From a virus (taxonomy: Duplodnaviria > Heunggongvirae > Uroviricota > Caudoviricetes), in the IMG/VR virus record IMGVR_UViG_2778261297_000002: a stretch of 16,614 nt of DNA; one strand, written 5' to 3'. The notes under the pieces were generated by a model, which saw only the letters and a list, made by a program, of their open reading frames with translations, had not been told where the DNA came from and ran no database searches. Shown here piece after piece: positions 5,129 through 15,320 of the stretch. Each line of letters starts with the position of its first letter. Within the stretch, counting starts at the first letter, position 1. The translations under genes were made by a program, and so were the position numbers.

Positions 5129-5493
5129 TCAGTCTCTTGAAATTTAACGAGCTGGAAAACCGTGTCGATTTGCTGGTTAACCGCGTCCTGGAGTTAGAAC
5201 AGCAGGTGCGCACACTCACCGAAAGCCAGGGGGGAGATATTCCTCCCGGTATGGCTCAGGTCGCCACGCTGGCGGCTGAGTTCGGCATATCGACGAAAAA
5301 AGCCGAAGAGCTGGCAAAAAACACGGGCGTGATGCTGGTCAGAATGAAAGCTGGTGGCTTTATCGCGCCGGATAACAAGTTCAGAGAGGTGGCGAGGCAG
5401 GTTCTGCGCAGCGCGAAGCGCAAATATGGATCGGCGTACTGGTATCACCCATTACTTGGCAAATTTCAGATGAGCGGAGGTATCCCGCAATGA
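5125..5493 (+). CDS. Hypothetical protein (122 aa), coiled-coil-like N-terminus
   Basis: ATGA start/stop overlap with the upstream gene at 5125-5128. Confidence 0.6.
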   Translation: MISLLKFNELENRVDLLVNRVLELEQQVRTLTESQGGDIPPGMAQVATLAAEFGISTKKAEELAKNTGVMLVRMKAGGFIAPDNKFREVARQVLRSAKRKYGSAYWYHPLLGKFQMSGGIPQ

Positions 5494-5855
5494 CCGATAT
5501 TTTTGAAGTGATAGGCCCATTGTTCCGCAAACTGACCGAAACCTGTATTGCTCACCAGATAGCGGAAACCGGTTCGGCAACCTTGCTGGTGGAAAGCGAT
5601 AAGTATATGGCCCGCTATCGCTTCACGCTGGAGCCGCGCGTAACTGAAAACGTATTGATGAAATATATGATTTTTGGCTGCTTTGAAGAATTCGGGCGCG
5701 ATGAGGGGTTAAGGCGTTTGCGGGATATTCTGCTGACCTGCTTTACCGACGATGGCGATATTAACGAAATGGGGTTGCAGATAGTGAAAAGCTGCCACCT
5801 TGAATACCTGCATGAAGATTTGGAAGCGGATCTTTCCAATAAGGTGCTGCACTGA
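5490..5855 (+). CDS. Hypothetical protein (121 aa)
   Basis: ATGA overlap at 5490-5493; GGAGG at 5476-5480. Confidence 0.6.
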   Translation: MTDIFEVIGPLFRKLTETCIAHQIAETGSATLLVESDKYMARYRFTLEPRVTENVLMKYMIFGCFEEFGRDEGLRRLRDILLTCFTDDGDINEMGLQIVKSCHLEYLHEDLEADLSNKVLH

Positions 5856-7987
5856 TGAAGATGAAAAACGCCCCAAACATTAAGTGTCTGCCAAAGGACA
5901 AGTTTACTGAGGCGATTATTTTTGCGGGGGAAGATGCTTATTCACACGCGCAGCACTGGATCGAGAGCGAGGGGAAAAGGGCGGGGGATGATGTGCCGCC
6001 TGTGTATCTGGGGAAAAAGCAGCTGGAGGAGCTTGAAAGGCTGAATATCATCGATCAGGGGCGTCGTTGCGTACGCGTGATTAGAGCTGGCGAGCTTTCC
6101 GAAATGCAGATAAGCACTATCGCAACCAAACTGGCGCTGGCGGATGTGAAAGAGGCCCGGCTGTTTAATGGCATGTTTGAGCCTCAGCCGAAGGAGAACT
6201 GGACGGATGTACTTCCACGGCTCAGGGAAGATGCCGAGCGTGGGGAAAGTATTGTGGTAAATCTGCCTGTGAAAAAAAGGGAGCCAAAGCCTGAACCGGG
6301 TGATGAACTGAAACCCCGCGTAGAGAGCCGTAACGATGGCCTGTACTGGATCACGCCAAAGGTGGATAAGGACAGCGGAGAAATAATCAATAACGAAACG
6401 TGGCTGTGTTCGCCGCTTGAGGTGGTGGGGTCCGGTAGTGACGGGGCCGAGCGCTATCTCGTTTTGCGCTGGCGTTCGCCACGTGGCCATGAAGATATTA
6501 CCAGGGCGATCCCCTGTGCTGATATCGGTGAGCGTGACGGCTGGCGCTCTCTAAAGGCTGGTGGGGTAAACGTAACGACTAAAAGTACATTCCGGGCAAT
6601 TCTTGCCGACTGGCTACAGCAATGTGGTGCAGGGCAGGAATGGATTATTAGCCATACCACCGGCTGGCATCACGGCGCATACATCATGCCAGATGGTGAA
6701 GTTATCGGTGATCCGGAAATGCCTATTCTCTTTAACGGTCGCAGCGCTGCATCTTCCGGTTATGCCGTGGCTGGAACTGCTGAGAGTTGGCGGGATTCAG
6801 TGGCATATCTGGCAGGAGGCAACCCATCGATGATGCTGGGTGTGGCTGCGGCATTGTCTGCGCCGCTGATCGGGCTGGTGGGCGCTGATGGCTTCGGCGT
6901 CCATTTGTTCGAACAGTCCAGCGCCGGTAAGACTACCACCGCAAATATTGCGAGCAGTATTTGGGGCGAGCCCGACGCTTTGAGGTTGACCTGGTACGGT
7001 ACCGCGCTTGGTATTGCTAACGAGGCAGAGGCGCATAACGACAGCCTGTTACCACTTGATGAGGTAGGGCAGGGCAGCAGTGCTAAAGATGTCGCCACGT
7101 CTGCTTACACTTTGTTTAACGGGGCTGGGAAGTTGCAGGGGGCTAAAGAGGGTGGCAACCGGGAGCTAAAGCGCTGGCGAACTGTTGCGATCAGTACCGG
7201 GGAAATGGATATTGAAACATTCCTGGCTGCTGGTGGAATTAGGGTGAAAGCTGGGCAGCTGGTGCGCCTGCTGAATATCCCCATGGAGAAATCCACGGCC
7301 TTTAACGGGCTGGCTAACGGAAAGGCCCACGCCGATGCACTGAAAGAGTCATGGATTGATAACCACGGCGCAGCAGGGCGTGAGTGGGTAAAATGGCTGG
7401 CAACCCACCAGCAGGAGGCTAAACAGGCTGTGCGGGATGCGCAGACGCGCTGGCGCAGTCTTATTCCGGCTGATTATGGTGAACAGGTTCATCGTGTGGC
7501 TGAGCGCTTCGCCATTCTTGAGGCTGCGCTGGTAACTGGTTCGCCGATAACTGGCTGGAGTGAACAAGCCAGCCGGGATGCTATTCAGCATAGCTTCAAT
7601 GCCTGGGTAAAAGAATTCGGAACAGGTAACAAGGAGCACCAGCAGATCATCGAGCAGTGCGAGGCCTTTCTGAACGCGCATGGTATGAGCCGCTATGCTC
7701 CGCTGCCATACTGCCCGTCAGATATGCCAATTCGTGATATGGCTGGATACCGCGAAAGGGGCAAGCATGATGATTCGCCGATGGTGTTTTATACCTTCCC
7801 TTCTGCGTTCGAAAAAGAGATAGCGCAGGGGTTCAATGCGAAGCAGTTCGCCAGAGTTCTGTCTGAATCTGGAATGTTGACACCCCCAGCAAGCGGCAGG
7901 GGATACCAGCGGAAATCACCGCGTATCGATGGGCGTCAGATTAATGTTTACGTCATTCAGTACCAGCAGGAGGGAACCGAAGAATAA
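5855..7987 (+). CDS. Phage/satellite primase-helicase-like replication protein (P4 alpha-like, P-loop NTPase)
   Basis: 710 aa; Walker A-like FEQSSAGKTTTANIASSIWG in the central region; TGATG overlap with the upstream gene; followed directly by the iteron array. Confidence 0.8.
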   Translation: MKMKNAPNIKCLPKDKFTEAIIFAGEDAYSHAQHWIESEGKRAGDDVPPVYLGKKQLEELERLNIIDQGRRCVRVIRAGELSEMQISTIATKLALADVKEARLFNGMFEPQPKENWTDVLPRLREDAERGESIVVNLPVKKREPKPEPGDELKPRVESRNDGLYWITPKVDKDSGEIINNETWLCSPLEVVGSGSDGAERYLVLRWRSPRGHEDITRAIPCADIGERDGWRSLKAGGVNVTTKSTFRAILADWLQQCGAGQEWIISHTTGWHHGAYIMPDGEVIGDPEMPILFNGRSAASSGYAVAGTAESWRDSVAYLAGGNPSMMLGVAAALSAPLIGLVGADGFGVHLFEQSSAGKTTTANIASSIWGEPDALRLTWYGTALGIANEAEAHNDSLLPLDEVGQGSSAKDVATSAYTLFNGAGKLQGAKEGGNRELKRWRTVAISTGEMDIETFLAAGGIRVKAGQLVRLLNIPMEKSTAFNGLANGKAHADALKESWIDNHGAAGREWVKWLATHQQEAKQAVRDAQTRWRSLIPADYGEQVHRVAERFAILEAALVTGSPITGWSEQASRDAIQHSFNAWVKEFGTGNKEHQQIIEQCEAFLNAHGMSRYAPLPYCPSDMPIRDMAGYRERGKHDDSPMVFYTFPSAFEKEIAQGFNAKQFARVLSESGMLTPPASGRGYQRKSPRIDGRQINVYVIQYQQEGTEE

Positions 7988-8007
7988 TTACACGTGAGGT
8001 TTATTTT

Positions 8008-8296
8008 GTTGGTTCAGTTGGTTCAGTAGGTAGTGTGTATCGTTATCGTGGTGTTTATATTGATTATTTTACACAGAAACTGAACCAACACTGAACCAAC
8101 AAATGACTGTTTTGAACCAACAAACGGGGGATTTGAACCAACATACCTACCCTGCCCGAATAAGTGTTTTTACTGAACCAACATAAAAACGGCGTTGTTG
8201 GTTCAAAACGGGGCTTTGTTGGTTCACTAAATAAAAATAAGTCTTTTAAAAACAATGTTCTTTACAAATTGAACCAACTGAACCAACTGAACCAAC
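8008..8296. repeat. Replication-origin-like iteron array
   Basis: 12 copies of the 9-mer TGAACCAAC: 8 forward (8081, 8092, 8113, 8134, 8174, 8270, 8279, 8288) and 4 inverted (8008, 8017, 8198, 8218), with an AT-rich stretch at about 8227-8269. Confidence 0.8.
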
Positions 8297-8333
8297 ATAG
8301 TTTTGTTTATATACGCAGAAAATGAGGTGAAAA

Positions 8334-8839: not shown

Positions 8840-9500
8840 CTGTCAGGTAGGGATGGATGTTGATCATTACCTGTAATCATTATTCTCCGGCATACCGTTC
8901 GCCTCTTCGCGTAAAGCTGCCAGTCCGTTAGACTCCTCGCCTTTCTGACCAGTTAGAAAAATCCTAGTGGTTAACATCTGTTGAATAAAACAGCAAAAAG
9001 GAGTTCACACCTTACGCACTATACAGTGCTACGCCCAAAGCCGCGTTAACGCTGGCTTTCTGGGGTATACACCCCTTGTGCATAAATAGTGAAACTTGTA
9101 TACAAAAATGAGGAAAATCAGCCTGCAAGGCGTACCAGATAAGGGATTTCTGTGTATACAGGTCAGCTAGTTAATAGGCCATTATTGAGCTGAGCACGGC
9201 AAGGCTGTATCGCAGGGCAGCTACACGCTGGCAGGAAGTCATGATGATTTGTGCTGAGGACGATGATCGGGAATGGGTAAAGCAGCGCCGTGAAACGTGT
9301 CTGGAGAACGTGAAGCGCCCGCCAGTGAAAACCGATGATTACGGCGATCTGCATAAAGCAGTCACTGAGACACAACACCGCATGGGGATAGCGCAACCAA
9401 ACGGCAATGCCTTCCGATTAAATGGTGGTAAGAAGCAACGACAGGCCACCAGCGGGGGCGACAGTTCGCAGTAAGGTTCGCACTAAAACGGCTGTAAATT

Positions 9501-9558
9501 CTGGACTGTCCTGGACGGATTTAAAACCCTAGCAGCGCCAGACCCGCGCCAGTAGTGG
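9501..9558. repeat. Conserved bipartite element, copy 1
   Basis: Arms CTGGACTGTCCTGGAC and AGACCCGCGCCAGTAGTGG, start positions 39 bp apart; near-identical copy at 10094-10151. Confidence 0.6.
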
Positions 9559-9686
9559 GCTGGAAGCTAAATCGTGATTCAGGACGTCCTAAATATCTGG
9601 TTAGTTCCACTGGTACGCAGTACGCAGTCAGGTGCGCAGCAAAACCGCGCATTCAGTTAGGGTTTTTGCGCACAGTGAGCCGTTAA

Positions 9687-10064
9687 ATGAAAAAAAATAG
9701 CCAACAATCAAGATCCGGATGGGGTGGCAAGCGGAAAGGCGCAGGCGCACCGTTGGGCAATACTAATGCCGTCAAACATGGCGAACGCAGTAGGCGGGCA
9801 TTCTTCCCGTTTGAGGGGGGCGAGGCGCTTTCTCCGCTGGTGCGAAATCGTGCAAGAAACCTCATGATGGCTGAGAGATACGGGCTATTACTGGCGACTA
9901 ATCCGACGCCGGGAACAGAAGAATGGCGCGAGATGACATTGATTAACGGACTCATGGGGCTACATGCCGACAGAATCGCACGGCTTGAGCTGAGTTTAGC
10001 GAGATCCGTTTCAATGCAAGCAAGGCGGGATCTGCGAAGGGTTAAAAAAAGCGGCGCATGTTAG
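9687..10064 (+). CDS. Basic N-terminus protein, possible terminase small subunit-like / packaging protein (125 aa)
   Basis: N-terminal GWGGKRKGAGAPLGNTNAVKHG Gly/Lys-rich motif reminiscent of some phage TerS N-termini; function unverified. Confidence 0.4.
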   Translation: MKKNSQQSRSGWGGKRKGAGAPLGNTNAVKHGERSRRAFFPFEGGEALSPLVRNRARNLMMAERYGLLLATNPTPGTEEWREMTLINGLMGLHADRIARLELSLARSVSMQARRDLRRVKKSGAC

Positions 10065-10093
10065 CAATCCGTATAGTCACCGATGTTGAAATA

Positions 10094-10151
10094 CTGGACT
10101 GTTCAGGACAGAACCAAAGCCCATATGAGGCGAGACCCGCACCAGTAGTGG
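10094..10151. repeat. Conserved bipartite element, copy 2
   Basis: Arms CTGGACTGTTCAGGAC and AGACCCGCACCAGTAGTGG with the same 39-bp register as copy 1. Confidence 0.6.
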
Positions 10152-10450
10152 ACAGAATCACGGGCGTGATTGAGCGTAAGACGGGGAAAGCAGCCAGAGG
10201 CATTGGCCTGACTCTGTAAAAGCAAAACGCCCGCACGGGCGTCAGGGAACGGGATAGACTTCTGCGACAATTTGCATTCGCCGCCAATATAGCAAGCCGT
10301 CCACATCAAGCAATAAACTATCACCGGGAGGGGGAGGCCAAATCTCTGCAACCCTGAGCCTTAAGGACTGCCCGCCTCATCGAATGTTTATACCCGCGAA
10401 AAATAAAATTTAATCTGGGCGTGTTTCATCCTTCCAGATGGGTATGACGT

Positions 10451-10636
10451 ATGACACCACGCGAAATAGCTTTATTGACCACCGCCAAACTGGAGCACGA
10501 AGGCCACCAGCTAACCCCGGCAGATCAACGGGAGATAGAACGCTCAGTTAATGCCGATATAGCCCGGCGTGACAAATTCCGCGAAATGATGCGATCACCT
10601 GCCTACCAGTGGAAGAAGCCAGCGCCGCGCAGGTAG
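10451..10636 (+). CDS. Small protein (61 aa), paralog of 14520-14711
   Basis: C-terminus MMRSPAYQWKKPAPRR parallels MTAPAYQWKRPDNPRR in the second copy, with similarity across the whole length; weak RBS. Confidence 0.45.
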   Translation: MTPREIALLTTAKLEHEGHQLTPADQREIERSVNADIARRDKFREMMRSPAYQWKKPAPRR

Positions 10637-10756
10637 ATATGGGATTATTCCACATGTAACTTATGCGTATTAAGCAAATTTCCTTTATTCACCTTTACAG
10701 AATTGTGAGTACGTCAGTATCGTTATCCTTCCGATTCGCATTTATTCAGGATTTGC

Positions 10757-11299
10757 ATGTACCAGCTAAAGATAACCATCCGAGACAGCAAGCCACCTAT
10801 ATGGCGGCGTGTGCTGGTTCCAGAGCAAATCCCCTTTAGTGAACTTCACGCGGTGATCCAGTTGGCTTTTGGCTGGAATGACGAACACCTGTATATGTTC
10901 GAGAAAGGGCGTAAAGGTGATCCCGGTAGCGAGTATCGCGTATGGGGTGAGGATGAAAGCATGGGTAATGCGGCAATCACACCACTATGGGCAGCGCTCC
11001 AGAATGAGGGTGACAGGCTGGTTTACACGTATGACTTTGGCGACTGGTGGGATTGCCTTATTGTGCTGGAGAAGCAAACACACGATACGAGCAATCAGCC
11101 CATTAGCTGCCTGCGTGGGAAAGGCACCACCCCGGCGGAAAACTCAGGCGGCTTGCATGGTTACAATGAATTGCTATTACAGGCCAGAGAGTCTGATAAT
11201 CCTGAGCAGGCCGAGATCCACAATTTCCTGATGCTGGATATTGAACGCCGGGTTTACGACCTGAGCCGCATCAACGACAGATTGCAGGCTATTAACTGA
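10757..11299 (+). CDS. pRiA4b ORF-3-like family protein (180 aa)
   Basis: YQLKITIRDSKPPIWRRVLVP...ELHAVIQLAFGWNDEHLYMF...YTYDFGDWWDCLIVLE matches the conserved pattern of that family (recognised from memory). Confidence 0.65.
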   Translation: MYQLKITIRDSKPPIWRRVLVPEQIPFSELHAVIQLAFGWNDEHLYMFEKGRKGDPGSEYRVWGEDESMGNAAITPLWAALQNEGDRLVYTYDFGDWWDCLIVLEKQTHDTSNQPISCLRGKGTTPAENSGGLHGYNELLLQARESDNPEQAEIHNFLMLDIERRVYDLSRINDRLQAIN

Positions 11300-11651
11300 C
11301 CCGCATGTATTCACCTGATATTGCGTTATCAGCGCCGCCACTATCTCGCACAACGGCACACTGTCCCGGTAAACCGTAGCGCACGACCGTTGCGCTGGTT
11401 TCACCGCCGCGCCGTACCTGACGGGATTCATACACTGTCATTCGCTCAAGCAGTCCACCGGCAACCATGCTTTCGAGCGTGCGGCTGGTTGATTCGAGCT
11501 GGTATCGTTTATCGAACGATCCCATGCCGTGAAGCAGGTAGGCCACGCCCGACACATCGAGTGGCGGAGCGCCGATCTCACCCGATACCCACTCGAGGTT
11601 ATCCGGCTCAAAGTAACTGAGTATCTCTTTTTTGCGGTTGGTCATTCTCAT
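11292..11651 (-). CDS. Winged-helix-like DNA-binding regulator, copy A (119 aa)
   Basis: ILSYFEPDNLEWVSGEIGAPPLDVSGVAYLL suggests a MarR/PadR-like wHTH; AAGGAA upstream; palindromic operator just upstream; paralog at 14708-15067. Confidence 0.65.
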   Translation of the reverse strand: MRMTNRKKEILSYFEPDNLEWVSGEIGAPPLDVSGVAYLLHGMGSFDKRYQLESTSRTLESMVAGGLLERMTVYESRQVRRGGETSATVVRYGLPGQCAVVRDSGGADNAISGEYMRVS

Positions 11652-11666
11652 GGCTGGCAGGTTCCT

Positions 11667-11696
11667 TATTGTGGGATAGCACTATCATACAATAAG
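11667..11696. promoter_or_regulatory. Imperfect 30-bp palindrome, putative operator of regulator A
   Basis: TTATTGTggGATAGcaCTATCatACAATAA, between regulator A and the divergent 11877 operon. Confidence 0.4.
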
Positions 11697-13535: not shown

Positions 13536-13586
13536 GGCACGGGCATTGCGCGCCGCGGTGTTTTCCTAGCTACAGGTTTTGAATTT

Positions 13587-13792
13587 GATTGACACTTTAC
13601 ACTAAGGTTTTTCCGGTTGCTGGGTTGTTAACTCCCTTGAGCGGCAAGGGATTACCGGGAATAACCGCCGATCCTGATTGACAGTTAGATTGACACTTTC
13701 TGCCTGAAAAGTGTCAACCGGACAGAAAAAGTGTCAAGTAGCTGGCGCTTTACAGTTTGATTGACAGTTTCCCGCCGGTGGGTTGACACATT
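13587..13792. repeat. Array of 7 TTGACA(C/G) motifs in both orientations upstream of the 13826 gene
   Basis: Forward copies at 13589, 13678, 13690, 13761, 13783; inverted at 13711 and 13731. Includes the palindrome TTGACACTTT-ctgcctg-AAAGTGTCAA. Confidence 0.6.
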
Positions 13793-13825: not shown

Positions 13826-14413
13826 ATGTCGCTGATGAGTGTGAGTCAGTACGCTAAACACGCAGGGCTAAGTCGTCAGGCCCTCTACAACTGGGAGGCT
13901 AAGCAAGGTTTCCCCGCACGAGTGGACGGCAAGATTGACCAACTGGCCTGTGATGCCTACCTGGCCCGATACCGCAGCGCCAGTGACCCGCGCACGAAGA
14001 ATGCCAGGGGGAAAACCAAATCTGCTCCAGCCGGTCAGGCGCAGGGGAGTGCGCTGGTGGAAATGAGTGTTGCGGAGATTAAGCGCATCATAGTGTCAGG
14101 TGCCGGTAAGGTGGCCGGGATGGATCCGGACGAACGAGCCCAACTGGCTGCAAAGGCCGTAGAGCTGTTTGTAAGCGAAGGGCCTTATAACCCTCCTGTA
14201 ACGTTCGGCGGCTACCGGCTGTCGATTGTTGAAACGCCAGATGTTGAAATCGGGCAGATCATCGCGGGCGGCGCGTTCGGCCTGTCTGCATATGATGTGA
14301 TTTACGAGTGCCGGGATTACACCCTGACTCTCATGAGCGATGAAACCGAAGAAACAGCCATGCGGAGAGTGATCCCTTCGTTGCTGTATGCCCTGGCCGA
14401 CGATACCGACTAA
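13826..14413 (+). CDS. HTH-containing protein (195 aa), N-terminal MerR/Nu1-like helix-turn-helix
   Basis: N-terminus SVSQYAKHAGLSRQALYNWEAKQGFP looks like a phage HTH; AGGAG 7 nt upstream; strong terminator downstream. Confidence 0.65.
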   Translation: MSLMSVSQYAKHAGLSRQALYNWEAKQGFPARVDGKIDQLACDAYLARYRSASDPRTKNARGKTKSAPAGQAQGSALVEMSVAEIKRIIVSGAGKVAGMDPDERAQLAAKAVELFVSEGPYNPPVTFGGYRLSIVETPDVEIGQIIAGGAFGLSAYDVIYECRDYTLTLMSDETEETAMRRVIPSLLYALADDTD

Positions 14414-14519: not shown

Positions 14520-14711
14520 GTGTTAAAACAGAAGAAAATCGAGGCGGTAATTGAAGAGCTGGCCCGCCTGCAGGGGAATGAGCTGAATGCCACCGATATG
14601 CTGGAGTTACGTTGCAGGGTTGCGGGAACGCTCGTTGCTAAAGAACGGCACCGCCGGAGGATGACGGCACCAGCCTACCAGTGGAAGAGGCCAGATAATC
14701 CACGTCGTTAA
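14520..14711 (+). CDS. Small protein (63 aa), paralog of 10451-10636
   Basis: GTG start with AGGA 8 nt upstream; shares the C-terminal PAYQWK(K/R)P...PRR motif; stop overlaps the convergent regulator B. Confidence 0.45.
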   Translation: MLKQKKIEAVIEELARLQGNELNATDMLELRCRVAGTLVAKERHRRRMTAPAYQWKRPDNPRR

Positions 14712-15067
14712 ACGACCCGCACATATTCGCCTTCTATCGTGCCGTCTGCACCTCCCGTATCGCGTACCACTGAAACGGTACCCGGCAGGCCGTAACGGAC
14801 AACGGTAGCGGTCGTCTCGCCGCCCATAACGATACTCCGCGCCTCCCTGCTCCGGTACCTCTCCAGCAACCCATCTTTCACCATTGCTTCCAGCGTTCGT
14901 CTGGTGGATTCGAGCCAGTGCCGGTTGTCTTCGAGGCCTGTCCCATACAGCAGGTACGCCACGCCGGATACATCAAGGGGAGGTGCGCCGATCTCACCCG
15001 TCACCCAGTCGCGGTTATCCGGTTCGAAGTAGCTGAGTATCGTCTTTTTGCGGCTGGTTAGTCTCAT
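14708..15067 (-). CDS. Winged-helix-like DNA-binding regulator, copy B (119 aa from ATG 15067)
   Basis: MRLTSRKKTILSYFEPDNRDWVTGEIGAPPLDVSGVAYLL aligns along its length with copy A; AAGGA upstream of ATG 15067 (the six-frame ORF extends to 15103). Confidence 0.65.
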   Translation of the reverse strand: MRLTSRKKTILSYFEPDNRDWVTGEIGAPPLDVSGVAYLLYGTGLEDNRHWLESTRRTLEAMVKDGLLERYRSREARSIVMGGETTATVVRYGLPGTVSVVRDTGGADGTIEGEYVRVV

Positions 15068-15080
15068 AGTGGGAGATTCC

Positions 15081-15106
15081 TTATTGTATGACAGTGCTAT
15101 CATACA
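15081..15106. promoter_or_regulatory. Palindromic putative operator of regulator B
   Basis: TTATTGTATGAcagtgcTATCATACA with arms TGTATGA / TCATACA; same position relative to the start as operator A. Confidence 0.4.
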
Positions 15107-15320
15107 TTAGTAATTCATGACAATCCGCCGTCATGGCTGGTGGTCACAGTCATGATAAATGTGCTCAGCCCATTCCCGGTTGAGTATGGGGGACGCATTC
15201 AACATCGAGGCATTTATAACTAATTGATGGTTATGTTTATGGAATTTGATGTTTTATAGCAGTAGGATGAAATCGCATAGACTATGCACAGCTATTACTC
15301 TGGATATACAAGGAATTTAT

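Follow-up and report, generated by a model that had tools for sequence, protein, structure and literature searches.

The island and its gene content

The island in the window (the whole stretch of 16,614 nucleotides that was analysed) is inserted between gcd and hpt in E. coli. It begins with a tyrosine integrase gene and the int-alpA RNA, after which come AlpA-like HTH, AntA and Icd-like genes, and it continues with a DUF927 primase gene and a set of iterons. Two small ORFs lie between the iterons and a gene for a PerC-family regulator; these are followed by the gene under study (hereafter the target gene) and by about 6 kb of accessory genes. The features that matter for what follows are these:

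1-1227, tyrosine integrase gene (int)
1236-1303, + strand, int-alpA RNA (Rfam RF02996, 60.8 bits), between the integrase gene and the next gene
5855-7987, DUF927 primase gene
7999-8310, direct and inverted TGAACCAAC iterons, immediately 3' of the DUF927 primase gene
9181-9474, + strand, PerC-family regulator gene (PF06069, E = 5e-24; PGAP), directly upstream of the target leader
9496-9686, + strand, leader copy 1, between perC and the target gene (repeat families D14 and D19; alignable core 9496-9626)
9687-10064, + strand, target gene (ATG at 9687, TAG at 10062-10064, 125 aa), encoding a conserved satellite protein with a small-terminase (TerS) motif at its N-terminus and a helical hairpin
9717-9785, + strand, Gly/Lys motif of the target protein (residues 11-33, GWGGKRKGAGAPLGNTNAVKHGE), near-invariant, common to PF10668/NF040601-type small terminases and predicted to be disordered
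9834-10058, + strand, predicted helical hairpin of the target protein (residues 50-124; helices 50-71 and 77-124), two long antiparallel helices with pLDDT above 90 (AlphaFold2)
10089-10148, + strand, partial leader copy 2, carrying a CTGGAC/CAGGAC box (10094-10109) and the first part of the hairpin segment, cut at 10142-10148
10142-10219, + strand, deletion junction (7-bp overlap, 10142-10148) and remnant, the last ~25 codons of a lost 203-aa gene

An integrase, an AlpA-type regulator, a primase-replicase with adjacent iterons and accessory genes at the far end are all PICI-type features, and PICI-type size (roughly 10-16 kb) and the absence of structural and lysis genes also fit the island; among its genes there was no family-level match to a capsid or terminase family. 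From this gene content we take the island to be a PICI-type phage satellite. In the published PICI layout a small terminase gene comes after the replication module and is followed by accessory genes (PMC10085698). The gene order of the island agrees with this layout and puts the target gene at the terS position. The TGAACCAAC iterons are probably the satellite origin of replication; relatives carry different iterons at the same place (GAGGTAACC in locus L018, GTTTCCA/TGGAAAC in Serratia L014). In a Salmonella relative (L016) a Q-antiterminator-like gene takes the place of PerC. A search of the window for a lambda-like cosN (GGGCGGCGACCT, up to 2 mismatches) gave one match, at 5258, which is the chance level, and no P2/P4 cos was found in the window.

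The accessory region has features of its own. A 195-aa ORF at 13826-14413 (+ strand) matches phrog_57 'terminase small subunit' over its first 73 residues (E = 1.9e-9), a segment that is apparently an N-terminal HTH, and it is preceded by three copies of the repeat GATTGACA(C/G)TTT at 13567-13770. This ORF had no tblastn match in phages and no sequence match in the PDB; it could be another gene of the island, independent of the target gene, with a packaging or Rpp-like role. A two-gene module, consisting of a ~61-aa ORF (phrog_7271) and a convergent ORF of ~119-131 aa, is present twice (10451-10636 with 11292-11651 on the - strand, and 14520-14711 with 14708-15103 on the - strand; ~77-83% DNA identity), and a similar 40-bp segment comes after each copy (11655-11694 and 15070-15109). 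Many relatives have this pair of ORFs beside the target gene.

The target ORF is a real and conserved gene

Homologues of the target protein form 108 clusters at 45-98% identity in a search of 5.8 billion proteins. They are typically ~120-130 aa long (nearly all are 115-140 residues), are annotated as 'hypothetical' throughout and have no Pfam domain in any cluster. The hosts are Enterobacterales, namely Klebsiella, Kluyvera, Serratia, Salmonella, Dickeya, Pectobacterium, Brenneria, Rosenbergiella and Erwinia. Over its first ~40 residues an alignment of 32 diverse members is near-invariant (MKKxxQQSRSGWGGKRxGAGAPxGNTNAVKHGERSRRAFFP; invariant motif columns G20, A21, P22, N25, N27, V29, G32 and E33), and the remainder of the protein is variable yet alignable. 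PGAP annotates the protein as WP_060616406.1 in related islands.

The target ORF is a real gene and belongs to the conserved core of a lineage of PICI-type phage satellites in Enterobacterales. One could argue instead for a spurious ORF or a decaying pseudogene without function, given that in E. coli EC09, whose chromosome is 100% identical to the window, PGAP calls no gene at this position and that copies survive in degraded island remnants of Dickeya and Pectobacterium. Against this, dN/dS is 0.19-0.33 in comparisons with divergent orthologues at 47-66% identity, indicating purifying selection, the N-terminus is near-invariant across the 32 diverse sequences, and the length and start of the gene are conserved, with many genomes annotating it. 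Because of these conservation data we consider the spurious-ORF reading effectively refuted and would give it hardly any weight. In EC09 the whole 1-kb stretch around the gene (L001 10076-11051, corresponding to 9475-10450 of the window) is without any PGAP annotation; other E. coli genomes do have an annotation for this gene.

Relation to small terminases

In the earlier note this ORF was proposed to be a TerS-like packaging gene on the strength of its Gly/Lys-rich N-terminus, from which a peptide was quoted (GKRKGAGAPLGNTNAVKHG) that corresponds to residues 14-32. The target protein does match TerS profiles at this motif. The best PHROG match, to phrog_1889 (TerS; E = 0.004), covers the motif only (residues ~9-35), phrog_509 and phrog_370 (both TerS) match the same residues more weakly, and NCBIfam NF040601 (TerS_not_xtmA) matches residues 9-33 only (E = 9e-4) with 18.9 bits against a curated cut-off of 120 bits. 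In all, there are motif-level matches to four TerS PHROGs and to NF040601, and distant family members give likewise motif-level matches. Pfam gave no match, PF10668 being absent even at E up to 10. At family thresholds, then, no terminase profile recognises the protein, an outcome that the earlier note had named as counting against its own proposal; the homology that lies below those thresholds is nevertheless real.

As a reference we took the TerS of the Streptococcus phage Javan247, a bona fide NF040601 member (140.7 bits). In profile-profile comparison with hhalign, the profile of the target family aligned to this single TerS with 92.6% probability and to an alignment of 15 Streptococcus-phage TerS with 94.8% probability (E = 5e-8). 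The latter alignment spans residues 18-62 of the target protein and residues 63-110 of TerS; it takes in the motif and the basic turn and stops just inside the first core helix. Two unrelated neighbouring proteins used as negative controls, DUF2280 and the phrog_57-like protein of the window, gave 0.03% and 1%, and homology of the target protein to either of them is rejected on the same comparison. In total, the TerS similarity is limited to ~40 residues that are partly compositionally biased. The target protein is related to TerS in one segment, and none of the terminase families in their present definitions includes it; these alignments show that it descends from, or shares a module with, the small terminases of the PF10668/YjcR/NF040601 type, whose Gly/Lys-rich linker motif, GAPxGNxNAxKHG, is present in it. 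Of TerS it keeps the Gly/Lys-rich linker (GAGAPxGNxNAVKHG) and the beginning of the first core helix. We found no useful literature on DUF2280 or YjcR terminases.

How widely the motif occurs was seen in an HMM search of 1.8 billion representatives, which returned 179 matches. Beyond the target family most of them cover the motif only, and they comprise many small proteins that start with the motif as well as some TerS that have two or three copies of it. Among 50,697 phage records, tblastn with the target protein matched only three Streptococcus TerS (E = 0.5) and tblastn with a motif-bearing relative (P0130) matched nothing, so that no enterobacterial phage TerS with this motif was found in these records. 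Small proteins beginning MPRGGKRKGAGAPKGNTNALKHG are encoded 2-3 kb downstream of an integrase gene in marine Gammaproteobacteria (L048 7013-7288, Pseudoalteromonas; also L050, L053 and L055). In L048 the gene comes after an AlpA-like HTH gene and a 230-aa ORF and before cargo genes. These motif-first proteins beside integrases may mark unrecognised minimalist satellites.

Architecture of the target protein

In TerS of the PF10668/NF040601 type the motif comes after an N-terminal HTH. In Javan247 TerS this HTH occupies residues ~4-37 (sigma-70 region-4-like matches), and PF10668 and PF13384 match the HTH region of its relatives. The target protein starts only 10 residues before the motif and has no such domain; it has thus lost, or never had, the N-terminal helix-turn-helix, as the comparison shows. 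This bears on the reading of the motif (GGKRKGAGAPLGNTNAVKHG) as a DNA-binding N-terminus of TerS: it is indeed a hallmark of several small-terminase families, but in terminases of this type it forms the linker that follows the HTH and is neither the N-terminus nor the recognised DNA-binding domain.

AlphaFold2 predicts that residues 1-36 are disordered (pLDDT below 50) and that the rest of the protein is dominated by the helical hairpin listed above. Fold searches of the PDB and BFVD with this model returned generic alpha-hairpin matches only, with no terminase among them. From the model, the hairpin is a probable oligomerisation or partner-binding element.

The leader, its duplication and a deletion scar

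The target gene had also been described as flanked by conserved bipartite elements. These elements (9496-9529/9537-9558 and 10089-10122/10130-10151) are real and lie on both sides of the gene, their two parts recurring at the same spacing of 593 bp with 76% and 91% identity, but they do not form a symmetric pair that brackets it. Comparison with relatives shows that they are two copies of a leader of ~130-200 bp, the second of which has been cut by a deletion. In the E. coli relatives L009 and L011 the leader is present twice, before the target homologue and before a gene for a 203-aa zinc-ribbon (CxxC...CxxC) protein that follows it and has no Pfam, PHROG or NCBIfam assignment; in L010 the second copy is retained without the zinc-ribbon gene. 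The copies are 77-79% identical to each other, and the full second copy of L009 (6691-6821) is 77% identical to 9496-9626 of the window.

Relative to L009, the window lacks 705 bp. The alignment falls into two blocks, window 9400-10148 with L009 6001-6750 and window 10142-10700 with L009 7455-8013, and the deletion took the 3' part of leader copy 2 together with most of the zinc-ribbon gene, of which the final ~25 codons are left. The C-terminal sequence PVVDRITGVIERKTGKAARGIGLTL is identical in the ORF at 10058-10219 of the window and in the L009 zinc-ribbon gene. Because the deletion removed the rest of that gene, the ORF at 10058-10219 is a remnant and not a gene.

Leader copy 1 contains two tandem CTGGAC boxes 10 bp apart (9501-9506 and 9511-9516), a small hairpin, CCCGC-N7-GTGGG, at 9543-9559 and, in its 3' half, an array of CGCA-type repeats (9613-9673) made up of xCGCA words (GTACGCAG, GTGCGCAG, TTGCGCAC). 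CGCA/TGCG words occur 7 times in 9600-9699, compared with a window mean of 1.0 per 100 bp. Words of this class (GTACGCA, CTGCGCA, ATTCGCA) are the most repeated upstream 7-mer at most Enterobacterales loci, including the distant L018; arrays of GTACGCA/CTGCGCA/TTCGCA are found at 6515-6620 and 7095-7335 of L018 (at least 12 copies) and at about 7400-7950 of L016 and L017. Motif-only proteins in other taxa and Streptococcus phage TerS have no such words upstream. The array is a candidate DNA site for the target protein and may be either pac-like or an operator. Of these, an operator is favoured: in relatives the leader and its CGCA array are duplicated before the unrelated zinc-ribbon gene, which suits a shared promoter or operator better than a pac site.

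The CTGGAC boxes appear to be a separate matter. In a Shimwellia island (L039, about 6630-6650) both hexamers read TAGTAC and the target protein is 98% identical; a box that changes when the protein does not should be a DNA site read by another protein. The parallel change of both hexamers suggests a DNA-binding protein that may co-evolve with them. The possibility that the leader acts as a structured RNA was set aside in favor of a DNA-level site, there being no covariation support (the RNAalifold covariation term is positive, +1.06); the single-sequence fold has z = -2.35. The only Rfam match in the window is the int-alpA RNA, which lies elsewhere than the leader, and no sigma-70 promoter or intrinsic terminator was found on the + strand of the leader.

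Gene neighbourhood in relatives

Every locus screened that carries the target family is an integrase/primase island or a remnant of one. No TerL gene adjoins a target family gene in ~75 loci (57 loci screened by tblastn with three TerL queries, 18 further loci by their called genes, and the annotation of the window record). A missing TerL neighbour is expected for a satellite TerS and argues against a 'phage TerS' but not against a 'satellite TerS'.

The downstream partner of the target family varies and is a DUF2280 gene, the zinc-ribbon gene or none. In 14 of the 18 IMG/VR loci a DUF2280 gene adjoins the target homologue, and the gap between the two is mostly 70-160 bp. In the Klebsiella islands L003-L005 the order is PerC, target homologue, DUF2280, a 97-aa ORF and int, and the pairing is seen also in Serratia (L043). 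In Salmonella phage Oslo and Klebsiella phage 2 LV-2017, DUF2280 (PF10045, phrog_546) lies directly upstream of TerL, and this place in Oslo-like phages is the canonical TerS position. The satellite copies of DUF2280 are full length and differ in their C-terminal tail. The island in the window is without a DUF2280 gene. Minimal satellites (L018-L020) carry int, AlpA, AntA, a 96-aa ORF, primase, ori iterons, CGCA arrays and a target-family gene, whose product, the distant member P0129, is encoded by the last and sole gene after the primase/ori region.

Possible role of the target protein

We favor the possibility that the target protein is TerS-derived and related to packaging, to which we would assign a probability of about 0.5. 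A packaging role is favoured because of the DUF2280 pairing and because of the minimal satellites L018-L020. In our working model, the protein would be part of a satellite packaging module that works on or with the terminase, acting as an HTH-less small-terminase-like subunit or adaptor: it would self-associate through its hairpin, its flexible basic arm would contact DNA or a terminase partner, and it would help to divert the packaging motor of the helper phage to satellite DNA. In most relatives the target homologue might act jointly with the adjacent DUF2280 small-terminase homologue of the satellite, and in the window island, where there is no DUF2280, the target protein might act alone or with another partner. 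The original idea of a TerS-like packaging gene therefore survives in part; motif-level homology to TerS, the post-replication position in a satellite and the DUF2280 neighbour of relatives speak for it, whereas the score of 18.9 against 120 bits, the lack of an HTH and the lack of a TerL neighbour do not. We would describe the gene as a plausible packaging gene that is not a recognisable terminase. A more ambitious version, to which we give much less weight, is that the target family would supply the packaging determinant that the abundant Gram-negative 'terS-less' PICIs (Type C) are missing; as an HTH-less TerS derivative it would use its invariant basic arm to read the CGCA array in front of its own gene as a pac-like site and would recruit the helper terminase with or without DUF2280.

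Two further readings have to be set beside these. If DUF2280 is the satellite TerS, a second TerS is not obviously needed, which favours an accessory or inhibitory role. The target protein might be an interference-only decoy, like Ppi of the SaPIs, in which a headless TerS fragment binds helper TerS or TerL and blocks helper packaging, the real redirecting subunit being encoded elsewhere (DUF2280 in relatives or perhaps the phrog_57-like ORF at 13826-14413 in the window). That the protein is without an HTH yet retains a TerS segment would suit a decoy, as would its tight pairing with a full-length satellite TerS homologue, which echoes the SaPI TerS and Ppi (PMC6739421), and the second TerS-like candidate in the window (phrog_57, E = 1.9e-9). 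We think a decoy unlikely, given that the gene is the sole post-replication gene of the minimal satellites, which would be left with no packaging determinant, and that the 50,697 phage records yielded no motif-bearing enterobacterial phage TerS and thus no obvious helper subunit to mimic.

The other reading is that the target protein is a DNA-binding regulator of late or accessory genes that places its basic arm on the CGCA arrays and dimerises through its hairpin, the likeness to TerS reflecting a reusable arm. Arrays of this type are constantly present upstream of the gene across Enterobacterales, the entire leader is duplicated before a second, unrelated gene, as would be expected of a shared operator/promoter, the gene comes after a regulator gene (PerC or Q-like), and hundreds of small non-terminase proteins in other phyla start with the same motif. 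On the other hand, the target protein has no known DNA-binding fold, its N-terminus is predicted to be disordered, the hhalign match continues past the motif into the core helix of TerS, the close pairing with DUF2280 speaks for packaging and not for transcription, and the CTGGAC part of the leader, altered in Shimwellia, would be read by another protein. A regulator seems to us as doubtful as a decoy, and we return to the packaging reading as our preferred one.

The choice matters for how islands of this kind are understood. A large number of PICI-like islands in Gram-negative bacteria encode an integrase, AlpA and a primase, yet nothing in them can be recognised as a terminase or capsid gene, and they are scored as doubtful or defective for that reason. 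For such islands a conserved gene that derives from TerS, sits where one is expected and is usually paired with DUF2280 gives a concrete packaging candidate and could improve satellite detection models. If the more ambitious version were true, related motif-first proteins, encoded near integrase genes in bacteria such as Pseudoalteromonas and Colwellia, would mark a much wider set of unrecognised minimalist satellites. If the target protein were only a regulator, the finding would be an ordinary one.

Comparison with known systems

Satellite-encoded small terminases and TerS-derived hijackers (SaPI TerS, Ppi, Rpp) are already known. The target family is unnamed and uncharacterised, and it is architecturally different in that it consists of a linker and core start without a DNA-binding head. 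Its closest likeness is to TerS of the PF10668/YjcR/NF040601 type, such as that of Javan247, with which it has in common (i) the motif GAPxGNxNAxKHG; (ii) an R/K-rich turn, RRxF(F/L)P; (iii) the residues that lead into the first core helix (P-L/I ... N-L/I) and (iv) a helical region of comparable size class after the motif. Javan247-type TerS differs in having an HTH (residues 1-40) and two copies of the motif, where the target protein has no HTH and one copy. The target protein is also ~100 residues shorter, leaving the C-terminal half of TerS unmatched, is never encoded beside TerL and occurs in integrative satellites of Enterobacterales rather than in phages.

With the SaPIs the likeness is one of arrangement. 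A 'two-shot' arrangement of TerS and Ppi has been described (PMC6739421), and here, too, a satellite small-terminase homologue lies beside a small accessory protein after the replication module. In relatives the SaPI-like pair is the target homologue and DUF2280; the island in the window has no DUF2280 partner, its next gene being the deleted zinc-ribbon gene. The TerS of the SaPIs belongs to a different family from DUF2280, and the hosts here are Gram-negative. Rpp of Gram-negative cos PICIs (e.g. EcCICFT073) resembles the target protein in being small, satellite-encoded and related to part of a small terminase, in having its gene after the replication module and in its proposed terminase-directed role. 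In design, however, the two are opposites: Rpp mimics the winged-HTH DNA-binding domain of lambda TerS, and the target protein has no HTH and retains, from another TerS class, the linker and the beginning of the core. Rpp-type PICIs carry a lambda-like cos (PMC9026076, PMC6739421), which the window island does not. Homology to Rpp, of which RppA and RppC have solved structures, was rejected, phmmer and profile searches against all PDB chains (E up to 10) giving only chance lectin matches. PICMI satellites were rejected as a matching family as well; their authors report no terS-like gene, and their core genes are different.

The only relative to have been characterised experimentally is EcCIMP1, an E. 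coli PICI (E. coli MP1, L081) that is mobilised by phage Kapi1 (PMC11773190). According to its authors, EcCIMP1 has no identifiable terminase gene, transfers at very low frequency and is packaged by an unknown mechanism; they class it as a 'Type C' PICI, without a recognisable terS or capsid gene (PMC11773190). Its right-hand end is of the same island family as that of the window island (PerC 78%, 61-aa ORF 92%, pRiA4b ORF-3 98%, 119-aa ORF 89%), and its DUF927 primase is 70% identical to that of the window. It lacks exactly window 9457-10325 (compared with L081 9361-9523), the segment with the leader and the target gene, and carries ejection-protein and DUF2824 genes instead. Low transfer in an island without the target segment is no more than a correlation, if a suggestive one. 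Two designs of packaging hijack are already known, a whole satellite TerS in the SaPIs and a mimic of the TerS DNA-binding domain in Rpp; if its packaging role is confirmed, the target family would represent a third, one that has the linker and core of TerS and dispenses with its DNA-binding head.
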